From an uncultured Bifidobacterium sp. (lineage in GTDB: Bacteria; Actinomycetota; Actinomycetes; S36-B12; UBA5976), in assembly GCA_964469855.1 (NCBI GenBank), contig CAYXYW010000003.1, positions 1 to 36,984 on the forward strand: a stretch of DNA of 36,984 nucleotides, in the 5' to 3' direction. Shown in pieces: positions 1,141 through 30,530 of the stretch; the stretch's first letter is position 1, and every line of letters starts with the position of its first letter. The notes under the pieces were generated by a model. It did no database searches, had not been told where the DNA came from, and saw only the letters and a program-made list of their open reading frames with translations. The position numbers and the translations under genes are program-made.

Positions 1141-1190
1141 TGCGCTCTCCTAAGCGTGAGAAACTTGGCTCTAGCCGTGAGTATTCCACC

Positions 1191-2639: not shown

Positions 2640-2657
2640 CGCTTGCGCGGAGGATTA

Positions 2658-3917
2658 ATGAAGAAGGATCTAGCAGTAATTGGGTTGGGCTATGTTGGCT
2701 TGCCACTCGCCCAAGAAGCAATACGCGCTGGACTGTCAGTAGTTGGTTATGACGTCAGCGATCGAGTGATAACTGGATTAAATGCTGGTAAATCCCATGT
2801 TGATGACTTATCCGATGCTGATATCCAAGCGATGCTGGCTGGCGGATTTTCCGCAACTAAAGATGATCAAGTGCTAGCCGATGCAAAAGCTATTGTGATC
2901 TGCGTTCCAACTCCGCTATCAGAAGATGGCGGACCTGACCTATCTGCCGTGCTTGGTGCAACCCAAGCGGTGGCAAAGAATTTAACTAAGGGTCAACTTA
3001 TAGTTTTGGAATCAACAACTTACCCAGGCACTACCGAAGAAGTCGTACAACCAATTTTGGAAAAAGGAGGGTTGCGCGCTGGTGAGGACTTTTATCTAGC
3101 TTTCTCGCCAGAGCGAATCGATCCGGGCAACAAGAAATTTGGAATGCGCAATACGCCAAAAGTTGTTGGTGGCATAAATCAAATTAGCACTGATAAAGCA
3201 GTTGAGATGTATGCCAATTTTGTTGACACCGTAGTTAGAGCAAAAGGTGCCAAAGAAGCAGAGATGGCAAAGCTGCTAGAAAACACTTACCGTCATATCA
3301 ATATTGCGCTAGTAAATGAAATGGCGATGTTCTGCAATGACTTGGGAATTGATTTGTGGGATGTCATCAGGTGTGCTTCCACTAAACCATTTGGTTTCCA
3401 AGCGTTTTATCCAGGGCCTGGTGTTGGTGGGCACTGCATTCCAATTGATCCAAACTATTTATCTCACCAAGTTAAAACTAACTTGGGATATCCATTTAAG
3501 TTTGTTGAGTTAGCCCAAGAAATAAACGCAGGTATGCCCAACTATGTAATTCGCCGAGTGCAAGATCAACTCAATTCCGTAGGTAAAGCACTGAACGGAG
3601 CTACCGTGCTGTTACTGGGAGTTACCTACAAACCAGATATTGCGGATCAGCGTGAATCCCCCGCTATTCCAATTGGTTTAGGTTTACTGGAAAAGGGTGC
3701 AAATGTGCTGTTCCATGATCCGATGGTAGAGATCTGGCGATTAGAAGGAAAAGAGCTGTCACGAGTGCCAGATCTAGCCAGCGCATTGGCGCAAGCAGAC
3801 ATAACGGTGATGTTGCAAGATCATGCTAGTTATGACTCCGACTTATTGATTAAGAATTCAAACTTGTTATTTGATACTCGAGGAAAATTAGATCACCCAG
3901 AGGTGGAACGACTGTGA
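2658..3917 (+). CDS. UDP-N-acetyl-hexosamine (GlcNAc/ManNAc) 6-dehydrogenase, WbpA/WecC family
   Basis: ATG 2658 is preceded by GGAGGA at 2649-2654, so the TTG 2643 start in the ORF track is probably too early. The N terminus carries the NAD fold VIGLGYVGLPLA. The catalytic-Cys motif GGHCIPIDPNYL is typical of UDP-HexNAc dehydrogenases. Confidence 0.85.
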   Translation: MKKDLAVIGLGYVGLPLAQEAIRAGLSVVGYDVSDRVITGLNAGKSHVDDLSDADIQAMLAGGFSATKDDQVLADAKAIVICVPTPLSEDGGPDLSAVLGATQAVAKNLTKGQLIVLESTTYPGTTEEVVQPILEKGGLRAGEDFYLAFSPERIDPGNKKFGMRNTPKVVGGINQISTDKAVEMYANFVDTVVRAKGAKEAEMAKLLENTYRHINIALVNEMAMFCNDLGIDLWDVIRCASTKPFGFQAFYPGPGVGGHCIPIDPNYLSHQVKTNLGYPFKFVELAQEINAGMPNYVIRRVQDQLNSVGKALNGATVLLLGVTYKPDIADQRESPAIPIGLGLLEKGANVLFHDPMVEIWRLEGKELSRVPDLASALAQADITVMLQDHASYDSDLLIKNSNLLFDTRGKLDHPEVERL

Positions 3918-4750
3918 GTGAATCTCACCAACTAAAACCAGTTGGTCAAAAACTAAGCCTTGGCGCATATCTTAAGGATTTGTGGAAACGCAGATTCTTT
4001 ATGATGTCTTTCGCCCGCGCTCGAGTAGAAGGACAAAACTCCAGTGCCGCACTTGGTCAGTTCTGGTTGCTGCTAACACCGCTGCTAACTGCTGCAGTTT
4101 ATTACTTGTTGTTTGGTGTGATTCTTGGCGTCTCTCGCGGTATTGAAAACTTTATTGCGTTTTTAGTTATTGGCGTAATGATGTTTCGCTTCACCTCAAA
4201 TAGCGCAAATGCAGGATCATTAGCGATCATCTCCAATAAAGGATTAATTCGCTCGTTACATTTTCCGCGAGCTTTGTTGCCAATATCCGCTTCGCTGCAA
4301 CAATTTTTGCAATTTCTCCCTTCTTTTATTGTGGTATTGATTGCGGTAGTTGCAACTGGCGAACCCATTAGATGGACCTGGTTGCTTATAGTTCCAATTG
4401 TTCTAATTCAATTTATTTTTAATACCGGACTTGCGCTACTACTGGCTCGCGTAGTTAATAAGGCGCGTGATTTGGCAAAACTAAGCCCATTTTTGATCCG
4501 AATGTGGGGATATTTAAGTGGAATCTTCTTCAGCATTGAACTGTCTAAGGAGCGATTCCCAGCCGCAATTGAACCGTTCTTGAGTTACAACCCTGCACAT
4601 ATTTTTATGCAGCTAACTCGAAGTATCTTTATTGAATCGATTGATTCCTCAATGCGAGATTGGCTATGGGGAATTGGCTGGGCGATTGCAGTTTTCATTA
4701 TTGGCTTTTATTTCTTCTTCAAGGGTGAAGGCAAGTATGGCCGAGATTGA
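3914..4750 (+). CDS. ABC-2 type polysaccharide/teichoic-acid export permease (Wzm/TagG-like)
   Basis: 278-aa protein with about six hydrophobic helices. The N-terminal motif LKDLWKRRFF is typical of the ABC-2 family. The GTG start overlaps the upstream stop (GTGA) and lies downstream of GAGGTGGA. Confidence 0.85.
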   Translation: MSESHQLKPVGQKLSLGAYLKDLWKRRFFMMSFARARVEGQNSSAALGQFWLLLTPLLTAAVYYLLFGVILGVSRGIENFIAFLVIGVMMFRFTSNSANAGSLAIISNKGLIRSLHFPRALLPISASLQQFLQFLPSFIVVLIAVVATGEPIRWTWLLIVPIVLIQFIFNTGLALLLARVVNKARDLAKLSPFLIRMWGYLSGIFFSIELSKERFPAAIEPFLSYNPAHIFMQLTRSIFIESIDSSMRDWLWGIGWAIAVFIIGFYFFFKGEGKYGRD

Positions 4751-5498
4751 TAACCGGACGGTGGTTGTAGACGATCTTCACGTCTATTATCGAATTCGAA
4801 CTAAAGTCAAAAGTAAGCAGATTGCCGCGAAGCAAAATATGCTTGATAAAGCACTGCGCCGTACCCGCAAAGTTCCGCTAAAAGAAGTGCATGCACTTAA
4901 AGGAATTAGTTTCACCACACATCAAGGTGAAGCAGTTGCCATTATTGGTCGAAATGGTGCCGGCAAAAGCACGCTGCTGCGGGCAATTGCTGGATTGATC
5001 CCAGCCCGCTCTGGCTCTATTCTCACCTCGTCTCAACCATCATTGCTAGGTGTTAATGCTGCATTGATGAATCACTTATCCGGTAGACGAAACATTGAAC
5101 TGGGTGGCCTAGCACTAGGAATGACGCCGGCTGAGGTCGAAGCAAATATGGAAGCCATTATTGAGTTCTCTGGATTAGGGGAATTTATTGATCTGCCGCT
5201 GAGCACTTACTCTTCTGGCATGGGTGCTCGATTGCGTTTTGCAATTGCATCATCCGTACCGCAAGAAATTTTGATGATCGATGAAGCGTTAGCAACTGGT
5301 GATGTTAACTTTAAAAAGCGCTCCCAAGAGCGAATCGCTGAACTCAAAGCAAAAGCTGGTACGGTCTTTTTAGTTAGCCATTCGCATTCAGTAATTCGGG
5401 AAACCTGTACCCGCGCCATTTGGCTTGATAAAGGCAATTTAGTTGCTGATGGACCAATGAATGAAGTTCTAACCGCCTACGAGGAAGCGACCACTTAA
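4737..5498 (+). CDS. Polysaccharide/teichoic-acid export ABC ATPase (Wzt/TagH-like), short form without C-terminal carbohydrate-binding domain
   Basis: Walker A is GRNGAGKSTL, the signature is YSSGMGARL and Walker B is ILMIDEAL. ATG 4737 (MAEIDNRT) lies behind GAAGG and overlaps the permease stop by 14 nt. The 4632 start in the ORF track runs inside the permease gene. Confidence 0.88.
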   Translation: MAEIDNRTVVVDDLHVYYRIRTKVKSKQIAAKQNMLDKALRRTRKVPLKEVHALKGISFTTHQGEAVAIIGRNGAGKSTLLRAIAGLIPARSGSILTSSQPSLLGVNAALMNHLSGRRNIELGGLALGMTPAEVEANMEAIIEFSGLGEFIDLPLSTYSSGMGARLRFAIASSVPQEILMIDEALATGDVNFKKRSQERIAELKAKAGTVFLVSHSHSVIRETCTRAIWLDKGNLVADGPMNEVLTAYEEATT

Positions 5499-5500
5499 TC

Positions 5501-6583
5501 GTGCGGGTGTTGGTAGTGACCGTGGTACACCACCCACAAGATGCACGAATCTACTTCCGTCAGATCGCCGCATTACTCGCAGATGGACATCAAGTTAGTT
5601 ACGCCGCACCATTTGATTCATTTCCAATCACTCAAGTTGATTCCAGAATTGAGACCATAACTATTCCGCGGGCTACCGGAAAACGACGAATTTCAGCACT
5701 GCTTGCGGCAAGGAAACTGCTCCGCACCCGTTCTGTAGATTTTGATGTTGTATTAATTCATGACCCAGAACTGCTGCTAGCGGCAAGCTGTAGCAAAGCT
5801 CCCGTGGTTTGGGATGTTCACGAAGACACTGCTGCTGCAATCTCTGCTAAATCATGGTTGCCAAGTATTTTTCACAAACCTGCTATGAAATTTATCGCTA
5901 AGTTAGAGAGCAAAGCCGAACAGCGCTATCACTTATTGTTGGCTGAAAGTGAATATCAAGCAAGGTTTACAAAATCTCACCCAGTTATTCCAAATACCAC
6001 CGCAGTTGCAAATTACAGTGAAACAGAGCCAACTGATTCGGTTATCTATTTAGGCAATATCACCACACTGCGCGGTGGAAAGACTTTGCTTCAGGTTGGC
6101 AAAGCGTTGAAACAGCATGGTATTTCTCTTGAGTTAATTGGCAGCTGTCCGGAAACTGAGTTGAGCAAACAACTAGTTGCTGCGCAGCATGCTGGGGAAT
6201 TGATTTGGCATGGCTTTTTACCGAACGAGAAAGCAAAACAACTGCTGCCTGGCAAATTGGCAGGGTTGTCGTTGTTGCAAGATCATCCAAATTATCGGGT
6301 AAGTCAACCATCTAAAATTTATGAATACATGGCAGCTGCAATACCAGTGATCACAACTAAATTACCGCATGCGTCACAACTAATTGAAGTTGCAGCTGCT
6401 GGCGTAGTGGTTGAATTTGATAACCCAGAGCAAGTTGTTGCTGAAGTCTTAAGAATTGCTGGCGATTCAGCAAGATGGAAAACATTCAGCAAAAATGGTC
6501 ACAGTTATGTATCACAGCACCACAATTGGAATGTTGATCAGAATAAATTTATTAGCGCGCTCGAAGGTTTCGTGGCGAAGTAA
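5501..6583 (+). CDS. Glycosyltransferase family 4 (GT-B fold)
   Basis: 360 aa with the classic MRVLVVT N terminus. The C-terminal donor-binding region is PSKIYEYMAAAIPVITT...AAAGVVVE. The start lies 2 nt after the wzt-like stop. Confidence 0.8.
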   Translation: MRVLVVTVVHHPQDARIYFRQIAALLADGHQVSYAAPFDSFPITQVDSRIETITIPRATGKRRISALLAARKLLRTRSVDFDVVLIHDPELLLAASCSKAPVVWDVHEDTAAAISAKSWLPSIFHKPAMKFIAKLESKAEQRYHLLLAESEYQARFTKSHPVIPNTTAVANYSETEPTDSVIYLGNITTLRGGKTLLQVGKALKQHGISLELIGSCPETELSKQLVAAQHAGELIWHGFLPNEKAKQLLPGKLAGLSLLQDHPNYRVSQPSKIYEYMAAAIPVITTKLPHASQLIEVAAAGVVVEFDNPEQVVAEVLRIAGDSARWKTFSKNGHSYVSQHHNWNVDQNKFISALEGFVAK

Positions 6584-7553
6584 GAAATCCAACACCCCAG
6601 CAGGTATGCATGGTCAGCAACACTACTGGTTGCCAAAGTAGTGAAGAAAGTTTGCGCTTATTAAAAATAGCTAATGAGCCGACCAAAATTAATGACAGAT
6701 AGCCAGCAATCGGTAAATAAAACAGCCAAGACCAACTCTGGCCAAGCAACGACGTCAAAAGTAATAAACTAAAAGAGGTAGTTAACGCCAACACCGTAAA
6801 AGGTGGTGCCAAATACCTAAGCGATTTAGTTTCTGGATACGTTCGTGCAACTTCTCGTCGCCATCTGCCATATTCAAAATATTGCTTTGCCAGTGCTTTA
6901 ACTGATGACCTGGGCCTGTAAGTAACTTCCAATCTGGGATCAAACCAAACTTTGCCACCTGATTGCCGGATTCGATAATTCATTTCCCAATCTTGAGCTC
7001 GAATGAAAGATTCGTCATAGCCGCCAACCCGCTCGATTGCGCTTCGTCTAAAGACACCTAAGTAAACAGTCATTGTTTCACCTGCGCCGCCACCTGTGTG
7101 AAATCGTGCTGGCCCAACTCCTAACACGCTCCGCATTGCTGCAGCTACTGCAATTTCAAACTTAGTTCTGCCGGTTGCTGCCATCACACCACCTACAACA
7201 TCTGCTCCTGTTTCCGCGAGCACTGCAGTTGCGGTTTGGATGTAATTTGGTGTCAGCAGCGAATGCCCATCAACCCGAACGATCACGTCATATTGTGATT
7301 GTGCAATTGCTAAGTTCAATGCGGCAGCTGTTTTACCTGATGGATTTGCCACTAATTTCACTCGAGGATCTGCCGCGGACATTTTTTCGGCAATCTGATT
7401 AGTGTTATCGACCGAGGGGCCAAGCGCCAAAATCAGCTCAATTGGACCGGGCACATTCTGGGTCAAGATCTCAGTCACCGCAGCAGCCAGATGTTTTGCT
7501 TCATTCAAAACTGGCATCACAACGCTAACTCCAACTAGCGGCCCGGTGTTCAT
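6552..7553 (-). CDS. Glycosyltransferase family 2 (GT-A) with C-terminal transmembrane segments
   Basis: GT2 hallmarks are VSVVMPVLNEAKHL, VRVDGHS and AQDWEMNYR. The C-terminal ~90 aa are hydrophobic (3-4 predicted helices). I chose ATG 7553 (MNTGPL) as the start, not the longer ORF reaching 7622. Confidence 0.8.
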   Translation of the reverse strand: MNTGPLVGVSVVMPVLNEAKHLAAAVTEILTQNVPGPIELILALGPSVDNTNQIAEKMSAADPRVKLVANPSGKTAAALNLAIAQSQYDVIVRVDGHSLLTPNYIQTATAVLAETGADVVGGVMAATGRTKFEIAVAAAMRSVLGVGPARFHTGGGAGETMTVYLGVFRRSAIERVGGYDESFIRAQDWEMNYRIRQSGGKVWFDPRLEVTYRPRSSVKALAKQYFEYGRWRREVARTYPETKSLRYLAPPFTVLALTTSFSLLLLTSLLGQSWSWLFYLPIAGYLSLILVGSLAIFNKRKLSSLLWQPVVLLTMHTCWGVGFLTSPRNLRAR

Positions 7554-7578
7554 GGTGTAAAACCTTAGCGGTGAGAGA

Positions 7579-8703
7579 ATGTGCGCCGTAACCAGAAGGG
7601 ACAACGTGTCGGACCAATCCAAGATCGTGCTTCACATTGGAACCATGAAGTCTGGCACCACCTACTTACAGCATGGATTGCTTAATCAATCCCAACAGTT
7701 GACTGCGAATGGCTGGCTTTACCCAATGATGTTCGCGCCAGCGCGGGGTGCAATTAACCATGAGCGTGCCATATATGGCTTAGTTGGCAATCACATCCCA
7801 TGGGTAGATAGCGCAACACAACAGCGGATGGCGCCGCAATGGCAGAAGTTAATTGCAGAAATTTCATCCACTGACAAGAATGTTCTAGTCTCAGCAGAAG
7901 CAGTTGCTTCGATGCTAGAAGACGGAATTGAACAATTAGTTGCAGCACTACCAAATCGAGAAATTGAAGTAGTACTTACTGCTCGCGACTTAGCCCGGGT
8001 GTTGCCATCATCATGGCAACAAAGTGTGCGCAATGGTAGACCGTATGGATATGAGGAATATTTTGATCGAATTAAAAGAGCTAAGGAATTGCCAATAACT
8101 GAATCAGTTGGTAGTAACTTTTGGCGCAGCTATCAATTAAGCGATGTAGTTAACCGATGGCAGAAATTCATCCCGCTCGAAAAAATATCTATTGTCACCG
8201 TTCCAGCAAAAACCAGCACCGACACACTATGGCAGCGTTTTGTCACAGCGCTGCAGTTGCCGCTAGAAACAACTGAACCAAAATTCGATGACAAAAAATC
8301 ACACACTTCCATAACTTGGCCAGAAGCTGAAGTGTTAATTGAGCTGAATCAAAAATGGGCAAGACAGCGAAAATCTAAAAAAGTGCAAAATCAATTACGG
8401 CGCAGAATTGTGCAAGAAGGTTTTCAGCAGCGCAGCAATCGTGGTCGTGCCATTGGCTTAACTGCGCCATGGCTGTCGCTAGCGCAGCGCTGGGCGGCAG
8501 CTGATGTTGAACAGTTGTTGACGTCAGGCGTAAACATTCATGGCGACATCAACGATCTGCTGGTATCGCCAGATCAATTAGCTGCTGAGCTTTGTTCCGC
8601 TGCTGAAATTGCTGATGCAGCAGCAGTTGCCTCTCGGTTTCACGATCGATTACGACTACAGGCGATAACCGCCCTTTTTGGCATCTCTGGCAAACGCCGC
8701 TAG
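7579..8703 (+). CDS. Sulfotransferase-like protein (putative PAPS-dependent glycan sulfotransferase) with ~170-aa C-terminal extension of unknown function
   Basis: A 5'-PSB-like loop (VLHIGTMKSGTTYLQ, compare PKSGTTW) lies at residues 17-31. A 3'-PB-like R-x7-S element (LTARDLARVLPSS) lies at residues 133-145. The gene is immediately upstream of ugd-cysD-cysNC on the same strand. An alternative GTG start at 7605 sits behind GAAGGG. Confidence 0.5.
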   Translation: MCAVTRRDNVSDQSKIVLHIGTMKSGTTYLQHGLLNQSQQLTANGWLYPMMFAPARGAINHERAIYGLVGNHIPWVDSATQQRMAPQWQKLIAEISSTDKNVLVSAEAVASMLEDGIEQLVAALPNREIEVVLTARDLARVLPSSWQQSVRNGRPYGYEEYFDRIKRAKELPITESVGSNFWRSYQLSDVVNRWQKFIPLEKISIVTVPAKTSTDTLWQRFVTALQLPLETTEPKFDDKKSHTSITWPEAEVLIELNQKWARQRKSKKVQNQLRRRIVQEGFQQRSNRGRAIGLTAPWLSLAQRWAAADVEQLLTSGVNIHGDINDLLVSPDQLAAELCSAAEIADAAAVASRFHDRLRLQAITALFGISGKRR

Positions 8704-8735
8704 GGTAGATTTAGCCCATCAATCGCTAGGAATTA

Positions 8736-10049
8736 ATGACTACAGGCATGCGGGTCACTGTTGTTGGCTGCGGCTATTTAGGCGCAGTGTTGGCAGCAGT
8801 TTTGGCTGAACAAGGAAATCAGGTAATTGGCCTTGATATTGACGATGCCAGAATTTCCCAACTAAATGCTGGTATTGTCCCATTTTATGAACCTGAATTT
8901 GAATCGGTGCTGCAAAATTCACTAGCAGCTGGAAATTTAACTTTCACAACTAATGCCGAAAGCATAGCAACAAGTGAAATTGTCTTTATCTGCGTTGGCA
9001 CACCACAGCAAAATGGTGGTGCTGCTGATTTATCGCAACTATGGGCTGCTGCTGATTCAATCGCACCACACTTAGCCGAAACTGCAGTAATTGTTGGCCG
9101 CTCTACAGTTCCCGTTGGCACAGCGAGCAAATTAGAGCAACGAATCAATCAAAAATCAGGCCGCACCTACCAACTTGCCTGGAATCCTGAATTTCTTCGG
9201 GAGGGTCATGCAGTTAGCGATACTCGCCTACCCGATCGAATCGTAATTGGCGCATCGTCAGTTAATGTGATTAATAAAATTAAAGAAATTTATCAACCGC
9301 AACTCGATAAGAAAGTTCCGTTCTTAGTAATGGATGTGCCGACTGCAGAATTAGTTAAAGTGTCGGCTAATGCTTTTCTCGCCACAAAAATTTCATTTAT
9401 TAATGCAATTTCGGAAGTTGCTGATATTGCTGGCGCCGACATAACTGCACTAGCTGAAGCTATCGGACTTGATCCTCGAATTGGAAATAAATTTCTTGCC
9501 GCTGGAGTCGGGTTTGGCGGCGGCTGTTTACCAAAAGATATTCGTGCCTTTATTGCCAGCAGCCAAGAGCTTGGTGCTGGCGAGGCGATGCAATTTCTAG
9601 TTGAAGTAGATCGGATAAATCAACGACAGCGAGCACGAGTTGTTGCACTAGCAAAGCAAGCATTAGGTGATTTAACTGACAAGAAAGTGGTGGTGTTAGG
9701 CGCTGCGTTTAAACCAAACAGCGATGATGTCAGAGACTCCCCTGCGCTGGATGTGGCATACGCAATTCATCAGTTGGGTGCCCAGGTTTTTGTCCACGAC
9801 CCAAAGGCCATTGATAATGCCAAGGTCCGCTATCCAGAATTGAATTATGAGCGTGACCTCACCGAGATCTTTAAGAATTCTGACCTAGTATTACACCTAA
9901 CCGAATGGGAGCAATACCGAGAGTTAGACCCGACCAAATTGCTCAGCCAGGTTACAAATGCAGTAATAATTGATGGTAGAAACGTATTGGACTTTAACAA
10001 GTGGCAATCTGCTGGCTGGCAGATTACCGGAATGGGTAAACGAGCTTAA
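8736..10049 (+). CDS. ugd: UDP-glucose 6-dehydrogenase
   Basis: 437 aa. The N-terminal Rossmann motif is VVGCGYLGAVLAAVLA. The catalytic-Cys motif GFGGGCLPKDIRAF is typical of Ugd. Confidence 0.9.
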   Translation: MTTGMRVTVVGCGYLGAVLAAVLAEQGNQVIGLDIDDARISQLNAGIVPFYEPEFESVLQNSLAAGNLTFTTNAESIATSEIVFICVGTPQQNGGAADLSQLWAAADSIAPHLAETAVIVGRSTVPVGTASKLEQRINQKSGRTYQLAWNPEFLREGHAVSDTRLPDRIVIGASSVNVINKIKEIYQPQLDKKVPFLVMDVPTAELVKVSANAFLATKISFINAISEVADIAGADITALAEAIGLDPRIGNKFLAAGVGFGGGCLPKDIRAFIASSQELGAGEAMQFLVEVDRINQRQRARVVALAKQALGDLTDKKVVVLGAAFKPNSDDVRDSPALDVAYAIHQLGAQVFVHDPKAIDNAKVRYPELNYERDLTEIFKNSDLVLHLTEWEQYRELDPTKLLSQVTNAVIIDGRNVLDFNKWQSAGWQITGMGKRA

Positions 10050-10966
10050 TGACTAAGTTATCGGTTAGCACTGATGAAGTGCTTGATGCACTTGAAGCTG
10101 AAGCAATTGGAATTCTCCGCGAAACCGCAGGTGCGTTTAAGAATCCAGTTCTAATGTATTCAATTGGTAAAGATTCCAGTGTGTTGCTGGAGTTAGCTCG
10201 TAAGGCTTTTGCGCCAGCGCCAATTCCATTCACTTTCTTGCACATCGATACCACTTTTAAATTCCGAGACATGATCGAATTTCGAGATCGCAAAGCAAAA
10301 GAGTTCGGTCTAAATCTCATAGTTCACACCAATCCTGAGGGCGCTAACGGCGAAGTTACAGCGTGGACTCATGGCGCACAGGAATACACCAGAATCATGA
10401 AAACTGTTGCACTCCGCCAGGCCTTAGATGCTGGCGGTTACGACGCTGCTATTGGCGGTGCGCGCCGAGATGAAGAGCGCTCCCGATCGAAAGAGCGGGT
10501 ATTTAGTTTGCGTGAAGCTGGGCATCGATGGGAGCCAAGAAATCAGCGACCAGAGATGTGGCGAACTCGCAATACTTCACTTAGCGAAGGTCAAACCATG
10601 CGAGTCTTCCCGCTAAGTAACTGGACTGAAATTGACGTTTGGCGATATGTTCGACGAGAAAATATTGAGATTGTTCCACTTTATTACGCCGCACCACGAC
10701 GCAGCATTATCCGTGATGGCCAAATTTTGGTGCTAGATGATGATCGAATGCCGCTGCTCGATGGTGAAGTTCCACAAGACCGAGTAGTCCGATTCCGGTC
10801 ACTTGGATGCTATCCAGTTTCAGCAGCGATTGAGTCAACGGCAACCACAATTGATGAATTAGTTGCTGAGATGGAAGCGACCAGAGTAAGTGAGCGAGCT
10901 GGCCGGTTAATTGATGGTGATCGCGAAGCATCAATGGAAGCCAAAAAAGCTGAGGGGTACTTCTAA
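10049..10966 (+). CDS. cysD: Sulfate adenylyltransferase subunit 2
   Basis: 305 aa of the PAPS-reductase-fold family. Motifs include VLMYSIGKDSSVLL and HIDTTFKFRDMIEFRD, with the C terminus EAKKAEGYF. The start overlaps the ugd stop (TAATG). Confidence 0.93.
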   Translation: MTKLSVSTDEVLDALEAEAIGILRETAGAFKNPVLMYSIGKDSSVLLELARKAFAPAPIPFTFLHIDTTFKFRDMIEFRDRKAKEFGLNLIVHTNPEGANGEVTAWTHGAQEYTRIMKTVALRQALDAGGYDAAIGGARRDEERSRSKERVFSLREAGHRWEPRNQRPEMWRTRNTSLSEGQTMRVFPLSNWTEIDVWRYVRRENIEIVPLYYAAPRRSIIRDGQILVLDDDRMPLLDGEVPQDRVVRFRSLGCYPVSAAIESTATTIDELVAEMEATRVSERAGRLIDGDREASMEAKKAEGYF

Positions 10967-12804
10967 TGTCAAGAGCAGTAGCCCCATTACTTCGTGTCGT
11001 AACTTGTGGTTCAGTAGACGATGGCAAAAGCACTTTAATTGGTCGCTTGCTTGTTGAGACTGAGTCGGTGCCGCTAGATGAAGTTGAGCGCGCCCGTACA
11101 TATCGCCGTGCTGGCTCAATAATTCCAGTAGGTGAAGTTGATTACTCGCTTCTTACCGATGGTCTTGAAGCAGAACGCGAACAAGGCATCACTATTGATG
11201 TTGCTTACCGTCATCTATTGCTGCCATCCGGTCGTCGCGTTGTGCTAGCAGATGGTCCAGGTCATGAGCAATACACCAGAAATATGGCGGTTGCAGCATC
11301 AGATGCCGATGTTGCGTTATTGCTTGTTGATGCCACCAAGGGAGTGCGCGATCAAACAATGCGCCACCTCACCGTTTGTGCATTAATGAAGGTAGGCACT
11401 GTTGTTGCAGTTATTAACAAACTTGATGCGAAGGATTTTTCTGAACAGCTAGTTACAGAAATTTCAGCGAAGTTGACCGAAGCCGCTGATCGGCTAGGCA
11501 TAAAAAGCTTGGTGATAATTCCAGTTAGTGCATTACTTGGTGATAACGTAATTGAGCGAAGCAATAACACACCATGGTATGACGGACCAACTGTGCTTGG
11601 TGCGCTACAGCAATGGATGCCTGGCACCTCACTAAACAATGCGTCACTTCGCATTCCAGTCCAGACCATTTTGCGTGCAGATGATTGGCGTGGTTATGGC
11701 GGCACTGTGGTTAGTGGAAGTTTGAAACTTGGTGACTCGTTTGTTGTGGCACAAAGTGGTAAGACCGCCAAGATCGCCCAACTTTATGTAAACGGAAAAC
11801 CAGCAGAAGTGGCATTAGCAACTGACGCAGTTGCAATTAAACCTGATGTGGAAATTGATATTTCTCGCGGCGATGTGCTTTGTGCGGAGAATGAACAACT
11901 ACAACCGGCAGATCGATTTTCAGCCGATTTAGTCTGGATTGGCGAAGAGCCATTAGCTCACGGTCGCTCCTATGCCTTAATCAGCGGCCCAACTTCAGTG
12001 AACGCAACTGTTACCACTATTCGACACAAATTAGATGTCAATACTGGCCATGAAGATGCGGCTCGCGTTTTAAACTTAAATGAGATTGGTCGCGTCACAA
12101 TCGCCACCGAGAAACCAATTCCGCTTGATCTTTACAGTGATGTGCGAGATACCGGCGGTTTCTTATTGGTTGATCGAGTAACTAAACACACTGTTGCTGC
12201 TGGCATGGTGCACCACGTGCTACGCCGTTCATTCAATGTCGTGCCGCATGAATTTGAGATAAATAAAGAAGCTCGTAGCAGACTTAAAGCACAAACGCCA
12301 AAAGTGATCTGGCTAACCGGCTTACCAGGTTCTGGAAAATCAACATTGGCAAATGAAGTTGAGCGCCGTTTATATGCCGCTGGCGTTCACACTTATCTGC
12401 TTGATGGCGATAACGTCCGAACTGGATTAAATAAAGATCTAGGCTTCACTGCAACTGATCGGGCAGAAAACGTAAGACGAGTTGGTGAAGTTGCCAAATT
12501 GATGGTTGATGCTGGCTTAGTGGTGTTAGTTTCACTCGTCTCGCCATTTAGAAGTGACCGAGATGCGGTCAAGGAGTTATTCCCTGCCGGTGAATTTGTT
12601 GAAGTATTTGTTGACACTCCAGTTGAGATCTGCGCGCAACGTGATCCAAAGGGTCTCTATGCCAAAGCGCAAGCAGGCGATCTGCCTAACATGACTGGTA
12701 TGGGACAAAACTATGAACCGCCGCTGCATGCAGATTTAGTTGTTGATGGCACAGCAGATTTAGCACAAAGCGCAGCGCTGGTAATTTCAAAAATTATGAA
12801 TTAA
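10966..12804 (+). CDS. cysNC: Bifunctional sulfate adenylyltransferase subunit 1 (GTPase) / adenylylsulfate (APS) kinase
   Basis: The N-terminal half has GTPase motifs [18 protein letters not shown] and NKLD. The C-terminal ~180 aa form an APS kinase with P-loop [11 protein letters not shown] and LDGDNVR. The start overlaps the cysD stop (TAATG). Confidence 0.93.
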
Positions 12805-13306
12805 GTTGCTGCTTAAGTTTTTGCTGTAATTCATCATTTTTGGTAACAACCAAATCAGCAAGTTCTGCCCGATAGCTGTCGAGCTTTGCTTGTAATTGAG
12901 AATCTGTCGCTGCCAAAATCCGAAGTGCTAACAATCCAGCATTTTTAGCCCCATTTATCGCAACTGTGGCAACCGGAACTCCAGCTGGCATCTGCACCAC
13001 ACTCAACAATGAGTCCAATCCATCTAACTGAGATAGCGCAACTGGAACACCAATGACTGGCAAACTGGTAGCTGAGGCAATCATTCCAGGCAGATGTGCT
13101 GCCCCACCGGCACCCGCAATAATTACTTGAATACCTGAATCGGCTGCGTTAGCAGCAAATTCCAACATTTGGGTTGGAGTTCGATGCGCGGAGATGACCG
13201 CAACTTCAGCAGCTACACCAAATTCTTGCAGCGTAATAACTGCAGGCTCCATGGTGAGCCAGTCCGAGTCTGACCCCATTACAACAGCGACTTTAGCTGT
13301 GGTCAT
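12794..13306 (-). CDS. purE: N5-carboxyaminoimidazole ribonucleotide mutase
   Basis: 170 aa with motifs [11 protein letters not shown] and [13 protein letters not shown]. Confidence 0.93.
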
Positions 13307-13323
13307 TTACTTTCCGTTCCGTA

Positions 13324-14475
13324 CTATTCATCAATCTTACCCGCCAAGAAATCAGTGGCATGGGCGATGCGGTCACGAAGGTCAGCTAAGTCAGCACCAA
13401 CTAAATTGATATGACCTACTTTTCGATTTGGCTTGACCTGTTTGCCATATAAATGCACTTTTAGTTCCGGGTCCCGCGCTAAGCAATGCAATAAGCCACG
13501 GTGTAAATCAGGATGGCTGCCACCCAAGATATTTCCCATTACAACAGCAGGTGCTGTCATCGTTGGTGAACCAAGTGGTAAATCCAGCACGGCACGAAGA
13601 TGGTTTTCAAATTGTGAAGTTACCGCACCATCTTGTGTCCAATGTCCCGAGTTATGTGGGCGCATGGCCAGTTCATTCACTAATAACGCACCAGATCCAG
13701 TATCAAACAATTCAACTGCAAGCACACCAATCACATCGAGTTCGGCAGCTATTTGTAGTGCTAACTGCTGAGCTTGAGCTGCTCGATCTGTTGGCAGATT
13801 TGGCGCTGGCGCTAATACCTGAGTACAGATGCCATCTTGTTGCACTGTCTCCACAATTGGATAAACGACTGCTTGATTATGCGGCGATCTAACAACTAAT
13901 GCAGATAACTCCCGTTTAAATTGAACTTTCTCTTCTAATAGCACTGGATACGTCAGGTCACTAAATTCACTTGCATCATGAATTACCCATACTCCCCTGC
14001 CGTCATAACCGCCACGAGGAGATTTTGCAATTAACGGGAAACTAACTGATGCAGCAAATTCCGCAGCAGCTGCTGAATTAGCAACTAATGACCATTTTGG
14101 CATTGGTGCTGATATTTGGGAAAGCCGCGCGCGCATTGCTGATTTATCTGCAGCATATTCCATCGCGGAGCTGGTTGGAAAAACTGTTATTCCGTTAGCG
14201 GTTAAATGAGCCAATGTTTCTACTGGCACTAATTCATGATCAAGAGTGATTACATCAACAGTTTGAGCAAACTTAAACACCGCTGCCAAATCTGTTAACT
14301 CACCAACTGTGGTGTCAGCAACAACTAGTGCCGCACTATCGGAGCTTGATTGAGCAAATACTCGAAGCTGAATCCCAAGCGCACTAGCTGCCTCTGCCAT
14401 CATTCGAGCTAATTGGCCTGCGCCTAATACACCAACAACTAATGTGCCCTCGGGAAACTCAGTTCTTGGATGCAT
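13324..14475 (-). CDS. purK: N5-carboxyaminoimidazole ribonucleotide synthase
   Basis: 383-aa ATP-grasp protein with GVLGAGQLARMM at the N terminus. It lies directly upstream of purE on the same strand. Confidence 0.92.
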   Translation of the reverse strand: MHPRTEFPEGTLVVGVLGAGQLARMMAEAASALGIQLRVFAQSSSDSAALVVADTTVGELTDLAAVFKFAQTVDVITLDHELVPVETLAHLTANGITVFPTSSAMEYAADKSAMRARLSQISAPMPKWSLVANSAAAAEFAASVSFPLIAKSPRGGYDGRGVWVIHDASEFSDLTYPVLLEEKVQFKRELSALVVRSPHNQAVVYPIVETVQQDGICTQVLAPAPNLPTDRAAQAQQLALQIAAELDVIGVLAVELFDTGSGALLVNELAMRPHNSGHWTQDGAVTSQFENHLRAVLDLPLGSPTMTAPAVVMGNILGGSHPDLHRGLLHCLARDPELKVHLYGKQVKPNRKVGHINLVGADLADLRDRIAHATDFLAGKIDE

Positions 14476-15199
14476 TAGCTGTCCTTAAGTGAATTACATC
14501 GCCTGAGATAACCTCAACTAAACCATGGTTAGTTGTAACCACCAGCGCTCCTGTTTCGGTAATCCCTGTTGCATTTCCAGTTATCTGCTCACCTGTTGTT
14601 AGCTGAACTTCAACCTGCTGGCCAATCGTACTTATCGCCGGTGCAATTAACTGCTGCACCTGAGCATCAGTCATTTCACTGCAATCTTCAACTAATTGGT
14701 GCAGCTCAATTAGAAAATCGGCAAGGGCTGGAACATAATCAGTAATGCCCAATTGGGTCGCAGTTTGAATTTTAGGCGCTGCAAAAAAATTAATGCCAAT
14801 TCCGATCACCGCAAAATCTGCATACCGCTCCACCAAAATTCCAGCAAATTTTCCAGTACTAATTAATCCATCATTTGGCCATTTAAGTTGAATTGGTTCA
14901 GCCAGATACTTTTGTAATGAATTCTTCAGTGCGACAGCAGTTAACATACTTAACCAAGTTGGTGCAGGCTTAAATTTAGATAGCCCAATCGCAATTGAGA
15001 TTGGAATTGAGCCCATTGGGCTTTCCCAACTTCGGCCCTGACGGCCTCGCCCGCTTGATTGTTTCGAGGCAATTCGAATTGACCAGGCCACAGCTGTATT
15101 TTGAGCTAATTCAGTTAGTAATTGTGCGTTCGTGGATTCAACCTGCTCTAACCAGGCCAAATCGGTAACCAGCATTGGCTGGGACGCTAATAAACCCAT
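14459..15199 (-). CDS. birA: Biotin--[acetyl-CoA-carboxylase] ligase, group I (no N-terminal DNA-binding domain)
   Basis: Motifs are STNAQL and the biotin-binding loop [11 protein letters not shown]. No wHTH domain is present. The start is uncertain: I used ATG 15199, with GTG 15235 as an alternative. The ORF-track start 15316 would overlap the accD5 start and SD. Confidence 0.8.
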
Positions 15200-15272
15200 C
15201 AGTAGGGGGCGATGTGAACTAATTACCTCGGCCACGCGGCTAGGGTACGAGTTGGGTAGCCCAGGAGGACAG

Positions 15273-16856
15273 ATGAACACCGCTGATTCCCATAATCCCA
15301 GGTCCACAGCAGGCAAGCTGGAGGAGTTGGCGATCTTTCGTGATCATGCGCTGCATTCTGCAACAGCTGCAGCAATTGAGCGTCAGCACAAACGCGGTAA
15401 ACAAACTGCTCGGGAACGCATCGCGCAGTTGTTGGACGAGGGCTCATTTGTTGAGCTCGATGAATTAGTACGACACCGATCCAGCAACTTTGGGTTAGAC
15501 GAAGATCGGCCATTCGGCGATGGTGTAGTTACCGGCTACGGCACCATTGATGGCCGACCTGTTGCCATCTTCGCGCAAGACTTCACCATTTTTGGTGGTT
15601 CGCTTGGTGAAGTTATGGGCGAAAAAATTGTAAAAGTAATGGATTGGGCGATTAAAAATGGTTGCCCAATAATTGGAATTCAAGATAGTGGTGGTGCGCG
15701 AATTCAAGAAGGTGTGTCATCACTTGATCTTTATGGTGAGATTTTCTATCGAAACGTTTTAGCATCTGGTGTCATCCCGCAGATTTCATTGATTATGGGG
15801 CCATGTGCTGGTGGTGCTGTTTATTCCCCTGCGTTAACAGATTTCGTTGTGATGGTGAATGAAACATCCCACATGTTTATTACCGGTCCCGATGTAATTA
15901 AAACAGTAACTGGTGAAGATGTTGGCTTTGAAGAACTTGGCGGTGCAGTTGCGCACACCACAAAGTCTGGTGTGGCACATTACGCCGCAACTGATGAAGC
16001 AGATGCACTTAATTATGTAAAGGCGCTGCTCTCTTATCTGCCAAGTAATAATTTGGATCGAGCACCCGGTTATGACGCAACTGCAGATCTAGAAGCAACC
16101 GACTCTGACCTGGCACTAAACCAATTAATTCCTGATGAATCAAATCAGCCATATGACATGTTCAAGTTGATTGAAGCTCTATTAGATGATGGTGACTATT
16201 TAGAAATTCAACCTAATTTTGCCCCAAACATAATCACCTGTTTTGGTCGAGTAGAAGGTCAATCAGTTGGAATTGTGGCGAATCAACCAATGCAATTTGC
16301 TGGCACATTAGATATTAATGCTTCTGAAAAAGCTGCTCGATTCGTCCGCACCTGCGATGCCTTCAATATTCCAGTTATTAGCTTGGTTGATGTGCCGGGC
16401 TTCTTGCCTGGCACTAATCAGGAATGGGATGGCATCATCCGTCGCGGTGCGAAACTTATTTATGCCTACGCTGAAGCAACCGTGCCAAAAATTACTTTGA
16501 TCACCCGAAAAGCATATGGCGGTGCCTATGTTGTGATGGGCGCAAAGAGTCTGCGAGCTGACATTAACTTTGCTTGGCCTACTGGCCAAATTGCGGTGAT
16601 GGGGGCATCTGGTGCAGTGAGTATCATCCATCGCAAAGAGATTGCTGATGCTGAAGATAAAGAGGCAACTCGCGCTGAGTTGCTACGGGAATATGAAGAT
16701 ACGTTAGATAACCCATACGTTGCTGCTGAACGTGGCTATATTGATCGAATCATTTTGCCCAGTGAAACTCGAGCTGAAATTGTGAAAGCGTTGCGGGCAC
16801 TGAGAAACAAACGGGATCAAACACCTATCCGTAAGCACGGAAACATCCCGCTATGA
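15273..16856 (+). CDS. accD5: Acyl-CoA (propionyl/acetyl-CoA) carboxylase carboxyltransferase beta subunit
   Basis: ATG 15273 is preceded by AGGAGG at 15263-15268. The carboxyltransferase motifs are [22 protein letters not shown] and [13 protein letters not shown]. Confidence 0.92.
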
Positions 16857-17047
16857 GTAAGTTGAATTTGAAAGTGATAAGTGGCAGCGCAACTGCCGAT
16901 GAGATTGCCGCGATCATGGCAGTAGTAACTGCGCTTTCAAATCAGCAACCAAGCGCAGCAGTTCAGAGGTCAAATTGGTCAAATCCTGCACTGCTGCATC
17001 GTCGCCCGCTGCCAGTTAACTGGACCACCAGTTATTTGCCGAGGTAA
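16853..17047 (+). CDS. accE5: Acyl-CoA carboxylase epsilon subunit
   Basis: 64-aa ORF coupled to the accD5 stop by an ATGA overlap. The sequence pattern (ISG..T.DEIAAI.AVV, then W...LL.RRPLP) is typical of actinobacterial AccE/PccE. Confidence 0.7.
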
Positions 17048-17049
17048 TC

Positions 17050-17661
17050 ATGAAATTGATTTTGGCTTCATCTTCTCCTGCCCGCGCCATGTTGATGCGC
17101 AATGCTGGATTAAGTTTTGAAGTCATTGTTTCGCATGTTGATGAAGAAGCCCTGCAAGCAGCAAATTCTGAATTGCTACCGGCTGATTTAGTAGTTAAGT
17201 TAGCTGAGGCAAAAGCGCAAGCAGTTGCATCCCAGGTTTCAGATGCCTTGGTAATTGCTGCAGATTCCATGTTTTTGTTTGACGGTTCGCTCTATGGCAA
17301 ACCACTTGATCCAGAAATTGCTCGAGATCGGCTGCGCCGAATGCAAGGTAAATTTGGCGAGTTAATTACTGGCCATGCTGTGATTGATACCAATACTGGA
17401 ATTTGTGAGACTGCCGTGGCATCTGCCGTAGTTCAGTTTGGTGAGATGACTGAAACTGAGATTTCAGATTACTTAGCTTCAACTGAGCCACTACATGTTG
17501 CTGGGAACTTTACGCTTGATGGTTTGGGGGCAGCATTTATTCAGCAAGTAAGTGGTGATCCAGCAGCAGTTGTGGGGTTATCCCTTTACACCGTGCGAAA
17601 TCTGATTAAGCGTCACGGTTATCAGTACACCCAGCTGTGGCAACTGGGCAGTAACAACTAG
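17050..17661 (+). CDS. maf: Maf-like nucleoside triphosphate pyrophosphatase
   Basis: 203 aa with an ILASSSPAR N-terminal motif and an ADS..L.DG...GKP core. Its position between accE5 and accA3 matches other Actinobacteria. Confidence 0.88.
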   Translation: MKLILASSSPARAMLMRNAGLSFEVIVSHVDEEALQAANSELLPADLVVKLAEAKAQAVASQVSDALVIAADSMFLFDGSLYGKPLDPEIARDRLRRMQGKFGELITGHAVIDTNTGICETAVASAVVQFGEMTETEISDYLASTEPLHVAGNFTLDGLGAAFIQQVSGDPAAVVGLSLYTVRNLIKRHGYQYTQLWQLGSNN

Positions 17662-21194: not shown

Positions 21195-21998
21195 ATGACC
21201 GCTGAAATAGACCCCTATCAAGCCGCTGCTGCCGCTGCCCGTGTCCTGGCCAAAGAGACCGGTGTGGTGCATCATGATGTTTTAGTTGTGCTGGGTTCAG
21301 GCTGGACCCCAGCTGCGGATGAGTTTGGTGATCCAACCGCTGAGATCACAGTTACTAACTTGCCAGGTTTTTCCGCTCCTGCGGTTGAAGGTCATGCTGG
21401 AAAGTTGCGCTCGGTTCGAGTGGGTGGACTTAATGTTTTGTTACAACTTGGCCGGACTCATTACTATGAGAAAAATGATGCACAAGCAGTAGTGCATGCG
21501 GTGCGAACTGCGTTGGCATCTGGTGTGAAAACTGTAGTGCTTACGAATGCTGCGGGTTCATTAAATCCAAATTGGACGCCAGGCACACCAGTATTGATTA
21601 AAGATCAGATTAATTTAACTGGTGGAACACCATTAGTTGGTGCCAGATTTGTTGATGTTACTGAAATTTATTCCAAACGGTTGCGCGAATTAGCAAAACA
21701 CGTAAAGCCAGACTTAGTTGAAGGTGTCTATACCGCTTTTCATGGACCGCAATATGAAACTCCAGCTGAAATTGCCATGGTGCGTGCTATCGGCGGCGAC
21801 CTTGTTGGTATGTCAACTGCGCTTGAGGCTATTGCAGCGCGCGAGGGAAATGCTGAAGTGCTTGGCATCTCCTTGGTAACCAATTTGGCCGCTGGTATGA
21901 CCGGCGAAAAGTTAAACCATGAAGAAGTTTTAGCTGCCGGCAAACAAGCAGCAACTGCCATGGGCAAATTGCTGGTTGAGGTTGTAACTAAGTTATGA
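21195..21998 (+). CDS. punA: Purine nucleoside phosphorylase (trimeric PunA type)
   Basis: 267 aa with motifs VLGSGW, GRTHYYE, GPQYETPAE and VGMSTALE. Confidence 0.9.
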   Translation: MTAEIDPYQAAAAAARVLAKETGVVHHDVLVVLGSGWTPAADEFGDPTAEITVTNLPGFSAPAVEGHAGKLRSVRVGGLNVLLQLGRTHYYEKNDAQAVVHAVRTALASGVKTVVLTNAAGSLNPNWTPGTPVLIKDQINLTGGTPLVGARFVDVTEIYSKRLRELAKHVKPDLVEGVYTAFHGPQYETPAEIAMVRAIGGDLVGMSTALEAIAAREGNAEVLGISLVTNLAAGMTGEKLNHEEVLAAGKQAATAMGKLLVEVVTKL

Positions 21999-23644: not shown

Positions 23645-23690
23645 GCCAAAGTGCTAAGTTTTGACCTAAGCAGCGACTGAAGGCGTGCTG

Positions 23691-25573: not shown

Positions 25574-25575
25574 TT

Positions 25576-28932: not shown

Positions 28933-29084
28933 CTTGCCCCTATCTAAGCCGATGTAACACCTATTTAACACGCCAGCCACCCGCTCAACGCGCAAGTAAC
29001 CTGTCAGAAGTTCTAAGGTTCACCAAACCGGGCTTCCCCGCCCCTTCTCCGGTTTCCAACTTACGAGAAGTCCCAGGAGGACCC

Positions 29085-30521: not shown

Positions 30522-30530
30522 TTCGCAGTA

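Follow-up and report, generated by a model that had tools for sequence, protein, structure and literature searches.

A sulfotransferase-like gene in one run with ugd and PAPS-synthesis genes at a glycan export locus of a freshwater actinobacterium predicts a sulfated cell surface

The design in which genes for the synthesis of 3'-phosphoadenosine 5'-phosphosulfate (PAPS), a sulfotransferase and an exporter lie together is already known. Mycobacterial CysD and the fused CysN-CysC make PAPS for Stf0 in the sulfolipid-1 pathway, with adenosine 5'-phosphosulfate (APS) as the assimilatory intermediate, and the rhizobial NodPQ pair is a dedicated ATP sulfurylase and APS kinase that delivers PAPS to the carbohydrate sulfotransferase NodH, encoded in the same gene region. 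In the capsule cluster of Vibrio sp. KMM 8419 the sulfate ester was verified by nuclear magnetic resonance, and the occurrence of PAPS and sulfotransferase genes in a glycan cluster was called a hallmark of sulfated polysaccharide synthesis (PMC11641403). For the wps-1 cluster of Actinoplanes missouriensis a sulfated extracellular polysaccharide was proposed in 2026; the authors stressed that sulfation is unverified, and reported that deletion of the adjacent CysNC-family gene AMIS_7390 disrupts sporangium formation (PMC13390465). Sulfated polysaccharides are considered rare in bacteria, and a 2026 paper states that they are known there only from cyanobacteria. Here, an operon of four genes (7579-12804, plus strand) is described from a 36,984-nucleotide stretch of contig CAYXYW010000003.1 of an uncultured actinobacterium (this whole stretch is referred to as the window), in which a sulfotransferase-like gene is followed by ugd, cysD and cysNC. 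With moderate confidence, the operon is proposed to sulfate the glycopolymer made by the surrounding locus, so that a sulfated cell surface is predicted; that the enzyme depends on PAPS, that the glycan is its acceptor and where sulfation takes place are points that we infer.

Like the window, the Vibrio cluster combines nucleotide-sugar genes, glycosyltransferases, an ABC-type exporter and sulfotransferases with its own cysN, cysD and cysC (PMC11641403). It differs in specifying a Gram-negative Kps-type capsule from an 80-gene region, in having cys genes that are second copies beside those of a sulfate-assimilating host, and in carrying sulfotransferases that standard annotation software (eggNOG, antiSMASH) identified. 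For Vibrio there is chemical proof of the sulfate ester, whereas the window is known from its genes alone. Conversely, the PAPS genes of the window are translationally coupled to ugd within a 5.2-kb operon, and its host order is reported to lack sulfate assimilation. The wps-1 cluster likewise is an actinobacterial glycan cluster with predicted sulfotransferases and a neighbouring gene of the sulfate adenylyltransferase/APS kinase family on which the same phenotype depends (PMC13390465). However, it uses Wzx/Wzy rather than ABC-transporter export, no ugd-cysD-cysNC operon is described for it, its sulfotransferases WpsB and WpsH are recognised by InterPro families, and its role is developmental (the sporangium matrix) in a large-genome soil actinomycete. 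A first-pass annotation of the window had known of no described actinobacterial example; the wps-1 proposal now calls for a revision of that statement.

The mycobacterial system shares with the window an actinobacterial CysD and CysN-CysC fusion that supplies a cytoplasmic carbohydrate sulfotransferase, but the acceptor of Stf0 is trehalose, in a glycolipid pathway, and not a polymer. Moreover, stf0 is not in one operon with cysDNC, and mycobacteria, unlike what is reported for the order of the window, also assimilate sulfate. NodPQ and NodH similarly place the PAPS supply beside a carbohydrate sulfotransferase, but the acceptor of NodH is a secreted lipo-chitooligosaccharide signal and the genes are plasmid-borne duplicates of housekeeping cysDN(C). 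These two systems, which had been put forward in the first-pass annotation as the precedents, are best kept as analogues, the Vibrio capsule cluster with its cysNDC being closer than NodPQ/NodH. What sets the window apart is the unclassified sulfotransferase-like family, the setting of a Gram-positive wall polymer with TagGH-like ABC export, and the translational coupling of ugd, cysD and cysNC in a compact operon, in a lineage reported to be unable to assimilate sulfate. No paper mentioning both Nanopelagicales and sulfotransferase was found in the literature searched.

In the six-frame list of open reading frames (ORFs), the operon consists of four consecutive plus-strand ORFs at 7579-8703 (374 aa), 8736-10049 (437 aa), 10049-10966 (305 aa) and 10966-12804 (612 aa). 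The sequence places a 32-nt spacer (8704-8735) between the sulfotransferase-like gene and ugd, whose ATG is preceded at a distance of 4 nt by an AGGA Shine-Dalgarno-like element, and the two remaining junctions are stop/start overlaps of the form TAATG, at 10047-10051 (ugd/cysD) and 10964-10968 (cysD/cysNC). The four co-directional genes, the single gap and the two overlaps are thus as first described. A promoter and terminator scan returned no terminator-like site at any junction of the operon, and fewer promoter-like and terminator-like sites between 6400 and 13500 than in shuffled sequence; the scan is compatible with a single transcript but has no power to prove co-transcription. Judged by their spacing, the four genes are presumably co-transcribed. 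That all seven orthologous loci from species-representative genomes keep this arrangement (see below) shows that the genes did not come together by chance.

The start of the first gene is uncertain and may lie at ATG 7579 (374 aa) or at GTG 7606 (365 aa). From ATG 7579 the gene overlaps the divergent GT2 glycosyltransferase gene by 44 nt, whereas in a 67%-identical ortholog the two were called at 365 and 334 aa with a divergent spacer of 53 nt, the 365-aa call corresponding to GTG 7606 in the window (MSDQSKIVLHIG...). In addition, residues 1-10 of the structural model are of low confidence. The ORFs are exactly those first listed, with the reservation that the true first codon may be the GTG.

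The assignments of the last three genes are secure at the level of family. Ugd (8736-10049), a UDP-glucose 6-dehydrogenase-type protein for UDP-glucuronate supply, carries three UDPG_MGDP_dh Pfam domains and scores 435 bits against TIGR03026 (cutoff 190), which is a subfamily model; its best equivalog, TuaD, is matched at 392 bits, below the cutoff of 700. It is clearly distinct from the second nucleotide-sugar dehydrogenase of the locus (2643-3917), with 26-29% identity by tblastn. CysD (10049-10966), the small subunit of sulfate adenylyltransferase, exceeds the cutoffs of both TIGR02039 (444 bits against 397) and NF009214 (440 against 413). CysNC (10966-12804), the GTPase subunit fused to APS kinase, matches the bifunctional model NF004035 at 746 bits (cutoff 715), and its APS-kinase domain (residues 445-594, 12298-12747), which would carry out the PAPS-forming step, matches PF01583 at 217 bits. 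Some fused APS-kinase-like domains are degenerate. In this protein the GTPase motifs are intact (G1 GSVDDGKS, G3 DGPG, G4 NKLD), and both the P-loop and the LVSPF serine segment of the APS-kinase domain are present; a catalytically competent pathway from sulfate to PAPS is therefore plausible. The proposed formation of APS and then PAPS consequently stands above curated cutoffs and with intact motifs, and that of UDP-glucuronate is predicted from the subfamily-level match of Ugd.

The sulfotransferase-like protein (7579-8703) has no hydrophobic segment and is predicted to be cytoplasmic. Its family is large, with 151 matches in a single-sequence search and at least 2,441 in a profile search, almost all named "hypothetical", none with a precomputed Pfam domain and with named sources that are overwhelmingly Actinomycetota; a few members bear the automatic UniRef name "Sulfotransferase family protein". 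A profile search of a 5.8-billion-protein database with the family alignment returned only further unannotated members among the top 120. Two motifs stand out in a 65-sequence family alignment spanning 25-80% identity, to which the following figures refer. The first, G21-T-M-K24-S-G-T-T-Y-L30 (7639-7668), is of the 5'-phosphosulfate-binding type. Its family consensus is G-x-P-K-[ST]-G-T-T-Y-L-Q, PK[ST]GTTYLQ being a frequent form. The lysine K24 never varies, and G26, T27, T28, Y29 and L30 are conserved at 90% or more. In the AlphaFold2 model this loop comes right after strand 15-21 and opens helix 27-36. No Walker A motif (GK[ST] or GxxxxGK[ST]) is present in the protein, and the K24 loop is therefore read as a form of the sulfotransferase 5'-phosphosulfate loop rather than a Walker A. 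The second motif, R136-D-L-A-R-V-L-P-S144-S-W-Q147 (7984-8019), is of the 3'-phosphate-binding type and follows a beta-strand; R136 and W146 are invariant and D137, L138, R140, P143 and Q147 reach 90% or more. The 3'-phosphate site of sulfotransferases has an arginine at a strand end and, about eight residues on, a serine in the following helix. In the model, R136 ends strand 128-135 and S144 lies on helix 138-151. Candidate catalytic-base residues are the invariant S105-x-E107 (SHE in many members), located after strand 101-106, and the partly conserved H61. The PAPS-binding sulfotransferase motifs ascribed to the first gene are thus present and conserved across the family.

The predicted structure points in the same direction. 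The AlphaFold2 model, built with the 65-sequence alignment, has a mean predicted local distance difference test score (pLDDT) of 92.2 and a predicted template-modelling score (pTM) of 0.89. In a Foldseek search of the PDB, ranks 1-4 were human 3-OST-5, the sulfotransferase domain of NDST1, 3-OST-5 again and bacterial SgdX2, with probabilities of 0.98-1.00, template-modelling (TM) scores of about 0.36-0.56, or 0.38-0.56 when normalised to the target, and E-values of about 2e-3; the top 50 also include the CurM ST domain, an Alicyclobacillus sulfotransferase (3rnl), TPST1 and an insect SULT. A sulfotransferase-fold match, on which the original idea hinged, was therefore found, with all top four hits being sulfotransferases. 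The best of these, the heparan-sulfate sulfotransferases 3-OST-5 and NDST1 (Foldseek probability 1.00, target-normalised TM 0.49-0.56), have uronic-acid-containing polymers as their substrates and carry motifs of the same types, the K-x-G-T loop and R-D...S. They are, however, eukaryotic Golgi enzymes of only 10-14% identity to the window protein, which in the model has about 130 extra residues in a C-terminal helical region (about 240-366) with no assigned counterpart in them. When Pfam was scanned member by member, Sulfotransfer_3 was recovered in 29 of the 65 sequences (best E 1.2e-4) and Sulfotransfer_1 in 13, all below threshold, while no other Pfam family occurred in more than two and no kinase family recurred. 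In one paralog the match to the Sulfotransfer_3 profile covers positions 5-182 of 216, and the paralog of locus L028 scores 18.7 bits (cutoff 27). From the fold, the two motifs and these recurrent weak matches, the 374-aa protein is very probably a divergent PAPS-dependent sulfotransferase.

Several results weigh against this assignment. The window protein had no match in Pfam even at E up to 10 or in NCBIfam at E up to 1, and neither phmmer nor hmmsearch with the family profile retrieved anything meaningful from the PDB. Alignment of the family with hhalign was not significant against one Sulfotransfer_1 protein (E 0.09) or against a 26-sequence Sulfotransfer_1 profile (E 0.064); both PAPS motifs fell in register in this alignment, with the RD segment opposite T-x-RD-P-x-D-V-x-A-S, which was counted as non-evidence. 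The Foldseek E-values are modest. Sulfotransferases of this superfamily have an alpha/beta fold with a central parallel sheet that is related to P-loop kinases, and such kinases (thymidylate kinases, zeta toxins and adenylate kinases) are matched with comparable TM scores; because of the latter, the modelled fold alone would not separate a sulfotransferase from a kinase. The protein could accordingly be another P-loop-fold enzyme, such as a glycan-phosphorylating kinase, or an inactive structural relative, as its failure against every curated sequence model, the kinases among its fold matches and the non-significant hhalign comparison with a bona fide Sulfotransfer_1 group would allow. This is considered quite unlikely given the K-[ST]-G-T-T loop with lysine in the sulfotransferase position and no Walker A, the R-D...S motif placed after a strand as in a 3'-phosphate site, the rank of sulfotransferases among the fold matches, the recurrence of Sulfotransfer_3 and Sulfotransfer_1 but of no kinase family, and the genetic linkage of the gene to PAPS synthesis. 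As the Pfam gathering thresholds of Sulfotransfer_1 (PF00685) and Sulfotransfer_3 (PF13469) were reached neither by the window protein nor by its relatives, it is not filed under any existing Pfam family. Stf0 does not provide one either: the model PF09037 (Sulphotransf) was unmatched by the window protein at E up to 10, it is not among the recurrent families in the 65 members, and no Stf0 structure occurs in the top 50 fold matches. The profile check suggested for the protein gave no match of its own and weak matches to Sulfotransfer_3 among its relatives.

The genomic context of the family was studied in a scan of one genome per species, with a 19-sequence alignment as query. Relatives were found in 391 stretches, of which 79 loci were fetched and compared with the window proteins by tblastn; 7 are orthologous and 72 paralogous. 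In all seven ortholog loci (56-80% identity), from metagenome-assembled genomes (MAGs) of Nanopelagicales or unclassified Actinomycetota, the core glycan genes, GT2, ugd and cysD are retained in the same order, and cysNC and purE follow in all six whose contig reaches that far, that of L004 ending at cysD. Carriers of the operon include GCA_016870575.1 (contig VGBH01000002.1) and the MAGs of L005, L006, L008, L009 and L010. In the reverse direction, the close metagenomic CysNC relatives with enough upstream flank (L084, L086 and L088) all have a family member, ugd and cysD upstream. The expected co-occurrence of the gene with cysDNC was thus observed both ways. In L016 (36% identity), cysNC and cysD point away from the family member, which is followed by ugd and GT2 on other strands, and in L093 (CysN 57%) the family member is divergent from cysD; these two loci represent an independent arrangement in which a family member adjoins cysD. 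GT2, the sulfotransferase-like gene, ugd and cysDNC therefore move together as a module. GT2 itself is present in the seven ortholog loci and in L016, and absent from the paralog-type loci.

The closest relative, L005, which originates from Lake Mendota, shows a split form of this arrangement (12397-17279). Right after ugd comes a first cysD copy (321 aa, PAPS_reduct 163 bits), and about 3 kb of unrelated genes (a DUF6671 protein, a small helix-turn-helix protein and isocitrate dehydrogenase) precede a second cysD together with cysNC. The split is probably real rather than an assembly artefact, because a gap of similar size occurs in L083, an independent metagenome contig with ugd at 5 and cysD at 4659. 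Two family loci, L012 and L067, come from MAGs labelled Limnocylindrales (Chloroflexota) and Rubricoccaceae (Bacteroidota), and reflect either horizontal transfer or mis-binned actinobacterial contigs.

The paralogous loci (30-38% identity) present a more varied picture. The same core of wecB, GT4, dehydrogenase, ABC-2 permease, ATPase and GT4 genes adjoins the family member in 36 of the 72, and in 40 the next gene downstream encodes a Sulfotransfer_1 protein above the Pfam threshold (53 bits, cutoff 22), after which there is often a second family member (hhalign probability 100%). Such a triple of family member, Sulfotransfer_1 protein and second family member is seen at L028:9938-13201 and in about 40 other loci. 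It sits at the variable end of the wecB/GT4/dehydrogenase/ABC-exporter cluster in many Nanopelagicales MAGs, where ugd, GT2 and cysDNC are all missing from the neighbourhood. The presence of sulfotransferase genes in this position hence appears to be widespread in Nanopelagicales.

At the level of the locus, several observations speak for caution. Within the 79 family loci cysD is within reach in only 8, L016 being the single paralogous case; the proposed tie between the family and cysDNC accordingly stands for the ortholog group of the window, but does not extend to most family members. One paralog group lies among glnA, glnE, a pyridoxal-phosphate-dependent decarboxylase and NAD synthase instead of glycan genes, and a Motilibacter member adjoins biotin carboxylase. 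Because of the former group, the family as a whole may have other acceptors and is not restricted to glycan loci. Finally, no sulfate transporter is encoded within the 37-kb window. On the main rival explanation, the adjacent genes do supply PAPS to a sulfotransferase, but this enzyme acts on something other than the neighbouring polymer, such as a lipid, a menaquinone-type cofactor, a small metabolite or a nucleotide sugar, by analogy with mycobacterial Stf0 and Stf3. In other Actinomycetota many members of the family indeed stand alone among housekeeping genes, away from any glycan genes, and sulfolipid and sulfomenaquinone are what PAPS from CysDNC is known to serve in actinobacteria. We nevertheless hold a non-glycan acceptor to be unlikely for the window, as the gene in the ortholog group is always flanked by GT2 and ugd on the border of the glycan/ABC-export cluster, as GT2, the sulfotransferase-like gene, ugd and cysDNC stay together even where rearranged (L016), and as half of the paralogous loci adjoin the same core glycan genes.

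The sulfur metabolism of the host bears on what the PAPS is made for. The assimilatory reductase of Actinobacteria uses APS, not PAPS, and the conserved APS-kinase domain therefore points to sulfation. The loci closest to that of the window are from Nanopelagicales MAGs, in keeping with the streamlined freshwater actinobacterium that had been suggested as host. For this order, all isolates, including those of the new genus Aquilimus, are reported to lack assimilatory sulfate reduction and to need reduced sulfur (PMC12817590), and the same absence and requirement are reported for cultured acI/Nanopelagicales (PMC5976882). Four complete genomes are likewise reported to lack the complete pathway and to need reduced sulfur, in a paper that leaves cysD, cysN, cysH and PAPS unmentioned (PMC5301498). 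The suggestion that the host does not assimilate sulfate is thus borne out for cultured relatives, at the level of the order. From these order-level reports we infer that cysH and sir are absent from the host of the window, in which PAPS would then probably be made only for sulfation.

Bifunctional CysNC is common in Nanopelagicales MAGs, with a dense tier of matches at 63-65% identity and one cluster spread over 142 blocks of the contig collection. Four further Nanopelagicales lineages have cysD-cysNC at one and the same site, in the order infC, rpmI, rplT, SpoU methylase, a gene of about 270 aa, cysD-cysNC, pheS and pheT. No cysH or sir lies beside cysDNC in any locus examined, these four lineages included, and, among the records compared, those with a paralog-type locus and those with cysNC did not fall in the same MAG. 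The gene directly upstream of cysD-cysNC at this site (256-272 aa; L097:8175-8981, L100:8241-9011, L102:4241-5050 and L106:4195-5013) lies between the SpoU methylase and pheST and has no Pfam domain. It was considered as a member of the sulfotransferase-like family and rejected (hhalign probability 0.08); its HRDD...H pattern may resemble that of Fe(II)/2-oxoglutarate dioxygenases.

This housekeeping location, away from glycan genes in most other Nanopelagicales, together with the fact that CysDN also feeds assimilation in Actinobacteria with an APS reductase, could suggest that cysD-cysNC of the window is ordinary sulfate activation, with APS passing to CysH, and that its proximity to glycan genes is incidental. 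Such a reading is regarded as very improbable. The stop/start overlaps tie cysD-cysNC to ugd in an arrangement kept down to 56% identity, the adjacency of a family member and cysD recurs in rearranged form in L016 and L093, and the APS-kinase domain is intact though unneeded on an APS-reductase route; the lack of assimilatory sulfate reduction in cultivated members of the order, and of cysH or sir adjoining cysDNC, argues likewise. Instead, at the level of the order, Nanopelagicales seem to retain PAPS synthesis for sulfotransferases, with the lineage of the window physically fusing supply and use.

The polymer that would be sulfated can be outlined from the remainder of the locus, which runs without interruption from 46 to 12804 and holds wecB, two GT4 genes, GT2, two sugar dehydrogenases, an ABC-2 permease with its ATPase, the sulfotransferase-like gene and cysD-cysNC. 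All four gene classes of a sulfated-polysaccharide cluster (PAPS genes, sulfotransferase, glycosyltransferases and exporter) are thereby present in one locus. Its outer edge, occupied by the same gene in orthologous loci, is a wecB/mnaA-type gene on the minus strand (46-1140; Epimerase_2 E 4e-99; 302.7 bits against TIGR00236, cutoff 210) for a non-hydrolysing UDP-GlcNAc 2-epimerase, which makes UDP-N-acetylmannosamine (UDP-ManNAc). On the plus strand follow a GT4 glycosyltransferase (1191-2639; Pfam Glycos_transf_1 and Glyco_trans_4_4, with sub-threshold NCBIfam matches) and the second nucleotide-sugar dehydrogenase (2643-3917), which is above cutoff for TIGR03026 (429 bits) and 67-92% identical in related loci. 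Its best equivalog-type matches, below their cutoffs, are UDP-ManNAc dehydrogenases, and this WecC-like enzyme is predicted to make the corresponding uronic acid, UDP-ManNAcA.

The glycan exporter consists of an ABC-2 permease of Wzm/TagG type (3914-4750, plus strand; Pfam ABC2_membrane, with a weak match to the galactan permease Wzm/RfbD) and a Wzt/TagH-like ATPase (4632-5498, plus strand; Pfam ABC_tran), which among NCBIfam models comes closest to teichoic-acid export TagH and galactan Wzt, without reaching the cutoff of either. The listed TTG start of the ATPase at 4632 overlaps the permease gene by 119 nt, and an ortholog was called at 253 aa; the true start probably lies about 100 nt later, leaving a short permease overlap. 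The ATPase carries no C-terminal carbohydrate-binding extension. A role of sulfate as a WbdD-like chain-terminating cap read by a Wzt carbohydrate-binding domain was set aside on account of the shortness of the ATPase (about 253-288 aa). A second GT4 glycosyltransferase (5501-6583, plus strand; Pfam Glyco_trans_1_4 and Glyco_transf_4) is followed by the GT2 glycosyltransferase (6552-7622, minus strand; Glycos_transf_2 E 1.7e-20), which is divergent from the operon and probably starts near 7556. By its gene content, the operon forms the distal end of an ABC-transporter-dependent glycopolymer locus, and the polymer is predicted to contain ManNAcA and glucuronic acid (GlcA) and to be acidic and teichuronic-acid-like. 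Similarly, the Bacillus subtilis tua and Micrococcus teichuronic acid polymers are phosphate-free, anionic and built with uronic acids (GlcA or ManNAcA) supplied by a Ugd/TuaD-type dehydrogenase. TuaD is the best equivalog for Ugd of the window and the ABC-2 exporter is TagGH-like, with all equivalog cutoffs missed, but the tua operon uses a Wzx-like flippase. No sulfation is known for the tua or Micrococcus polymers.

On the preferred reading, sulfate would enter the cell by a transporter encoded outside the window, CysD and the CysN GTPase would convert sulfate and ATP to APS, and the fused CysC domain would phosphorylate APS to PAPS. In parallel, WecB and the WecC-like dehydrogenase would provide UDP-ManNAcA and Ugd UDP-GlcA, from which the two GT4 enzymes and the divergent GT2 would build, on a lipid carrier at the cytoplasmic face, an acidic polymer resembling teichuronic acid. 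While this polymer is still lipid-linked, the soluble 365/374-aa enzyme would O-sulfate it in the cytoplasm, before its export by the Wzm/Wzt (TagGH-like) transporter, and wall attachment would need enzymes encoded outside the window. In ABC-transporter-dependent pathways the polymer is completed at the cytoplasmic face before export, which fits a soluble PAPS-using enzyme with no hydrophobic segment. Because ugd and GT2 are co-inherited with the sulfotransferase-like gene, the sulfated residue may, speculatively, be GlcA or its neighbour.

Beyond the operon, housekeeping genes begin at 12794 with purE, purK, birA, a carboxyltransferase gene, maf and a biotin carboxylase gene. The right half of the window (21195-36981) looks like a region for nucleoside and deoxyribose utilisation, encoding a purine-nucleoside-phosphorylase-type protein of the PNP_UDP_1 family, a phosphoglucomutase/phosphomannomutase-family protein, a PfkB kinase, a DeoC aldolase, aldehyde dehydrogenase, adenosine deaminase, a nucleobase permease, a pyrimidine-nucleoside phosphorylase and an ABC importer with two BPD_transp_2 permeases and a double ATPase. 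Within it, a 278-aa ORF (27011-27847) directly follows the full-length 480-aa aldehyde dehydrogenase gene (25576-27018) and matches only the first half of that family (profile positions 14-232 of 461), which may mark it as a truncated duplicate or as a pseudogene. Rfam and tRNA scans of the window were both empty.

A broader possibility, put forward tentatively and with less confidence than the function of the operon itself, is that sulfation of a phosphate-free, uronic-acid wall polymer is a general unrecognised trait of Nanopelagicales (acI), carried out by the unclassified sulfotransferase family and its Sulfotransfer_1 partners. It would explain why cysD-cysNC with an active APS-kinase domain is retained in genomes from which sulfate assimilation has been lost. 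Sulfate would charge the surface while sparing phosphorus, and would act as a variable determinant towards phages and grazers. Nanopelagicales are the most abundant freshwater bacterioplankton and can make up a large share of lake bacterioplankton. If true, the proposal would resolve an oddity of this order, namely its reported dependence on reduced sulfur despite a complete sulfate-to-PAPS pathway in many members. It would also give a new view of the surface (charge, phage receptors, grazing resistance and metal binding) in a Gram-positive lineage abundant in lakes, and would add a route for sulfate into dissolved organic sulfur. A wall polymer charged by uronic acid and sulfate would need no phosphorus, which fits oligotrophic, phosphorus-limited lakes and has known parallels in the teichoic-to-teichuronic switch and in sulfolipid substitution. 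The enzymes would further be of relevance to heparin-like materials, for which new polysaccharide sulfotransferases are sought. No single element of the locus is unprecedented; in combination, they would provide a testable function for a large orphan family of at least 2,441 proteins from at least 391 species-representative genomes, nearly all of them hypothetical and with no Pfam or NCBIfam model.

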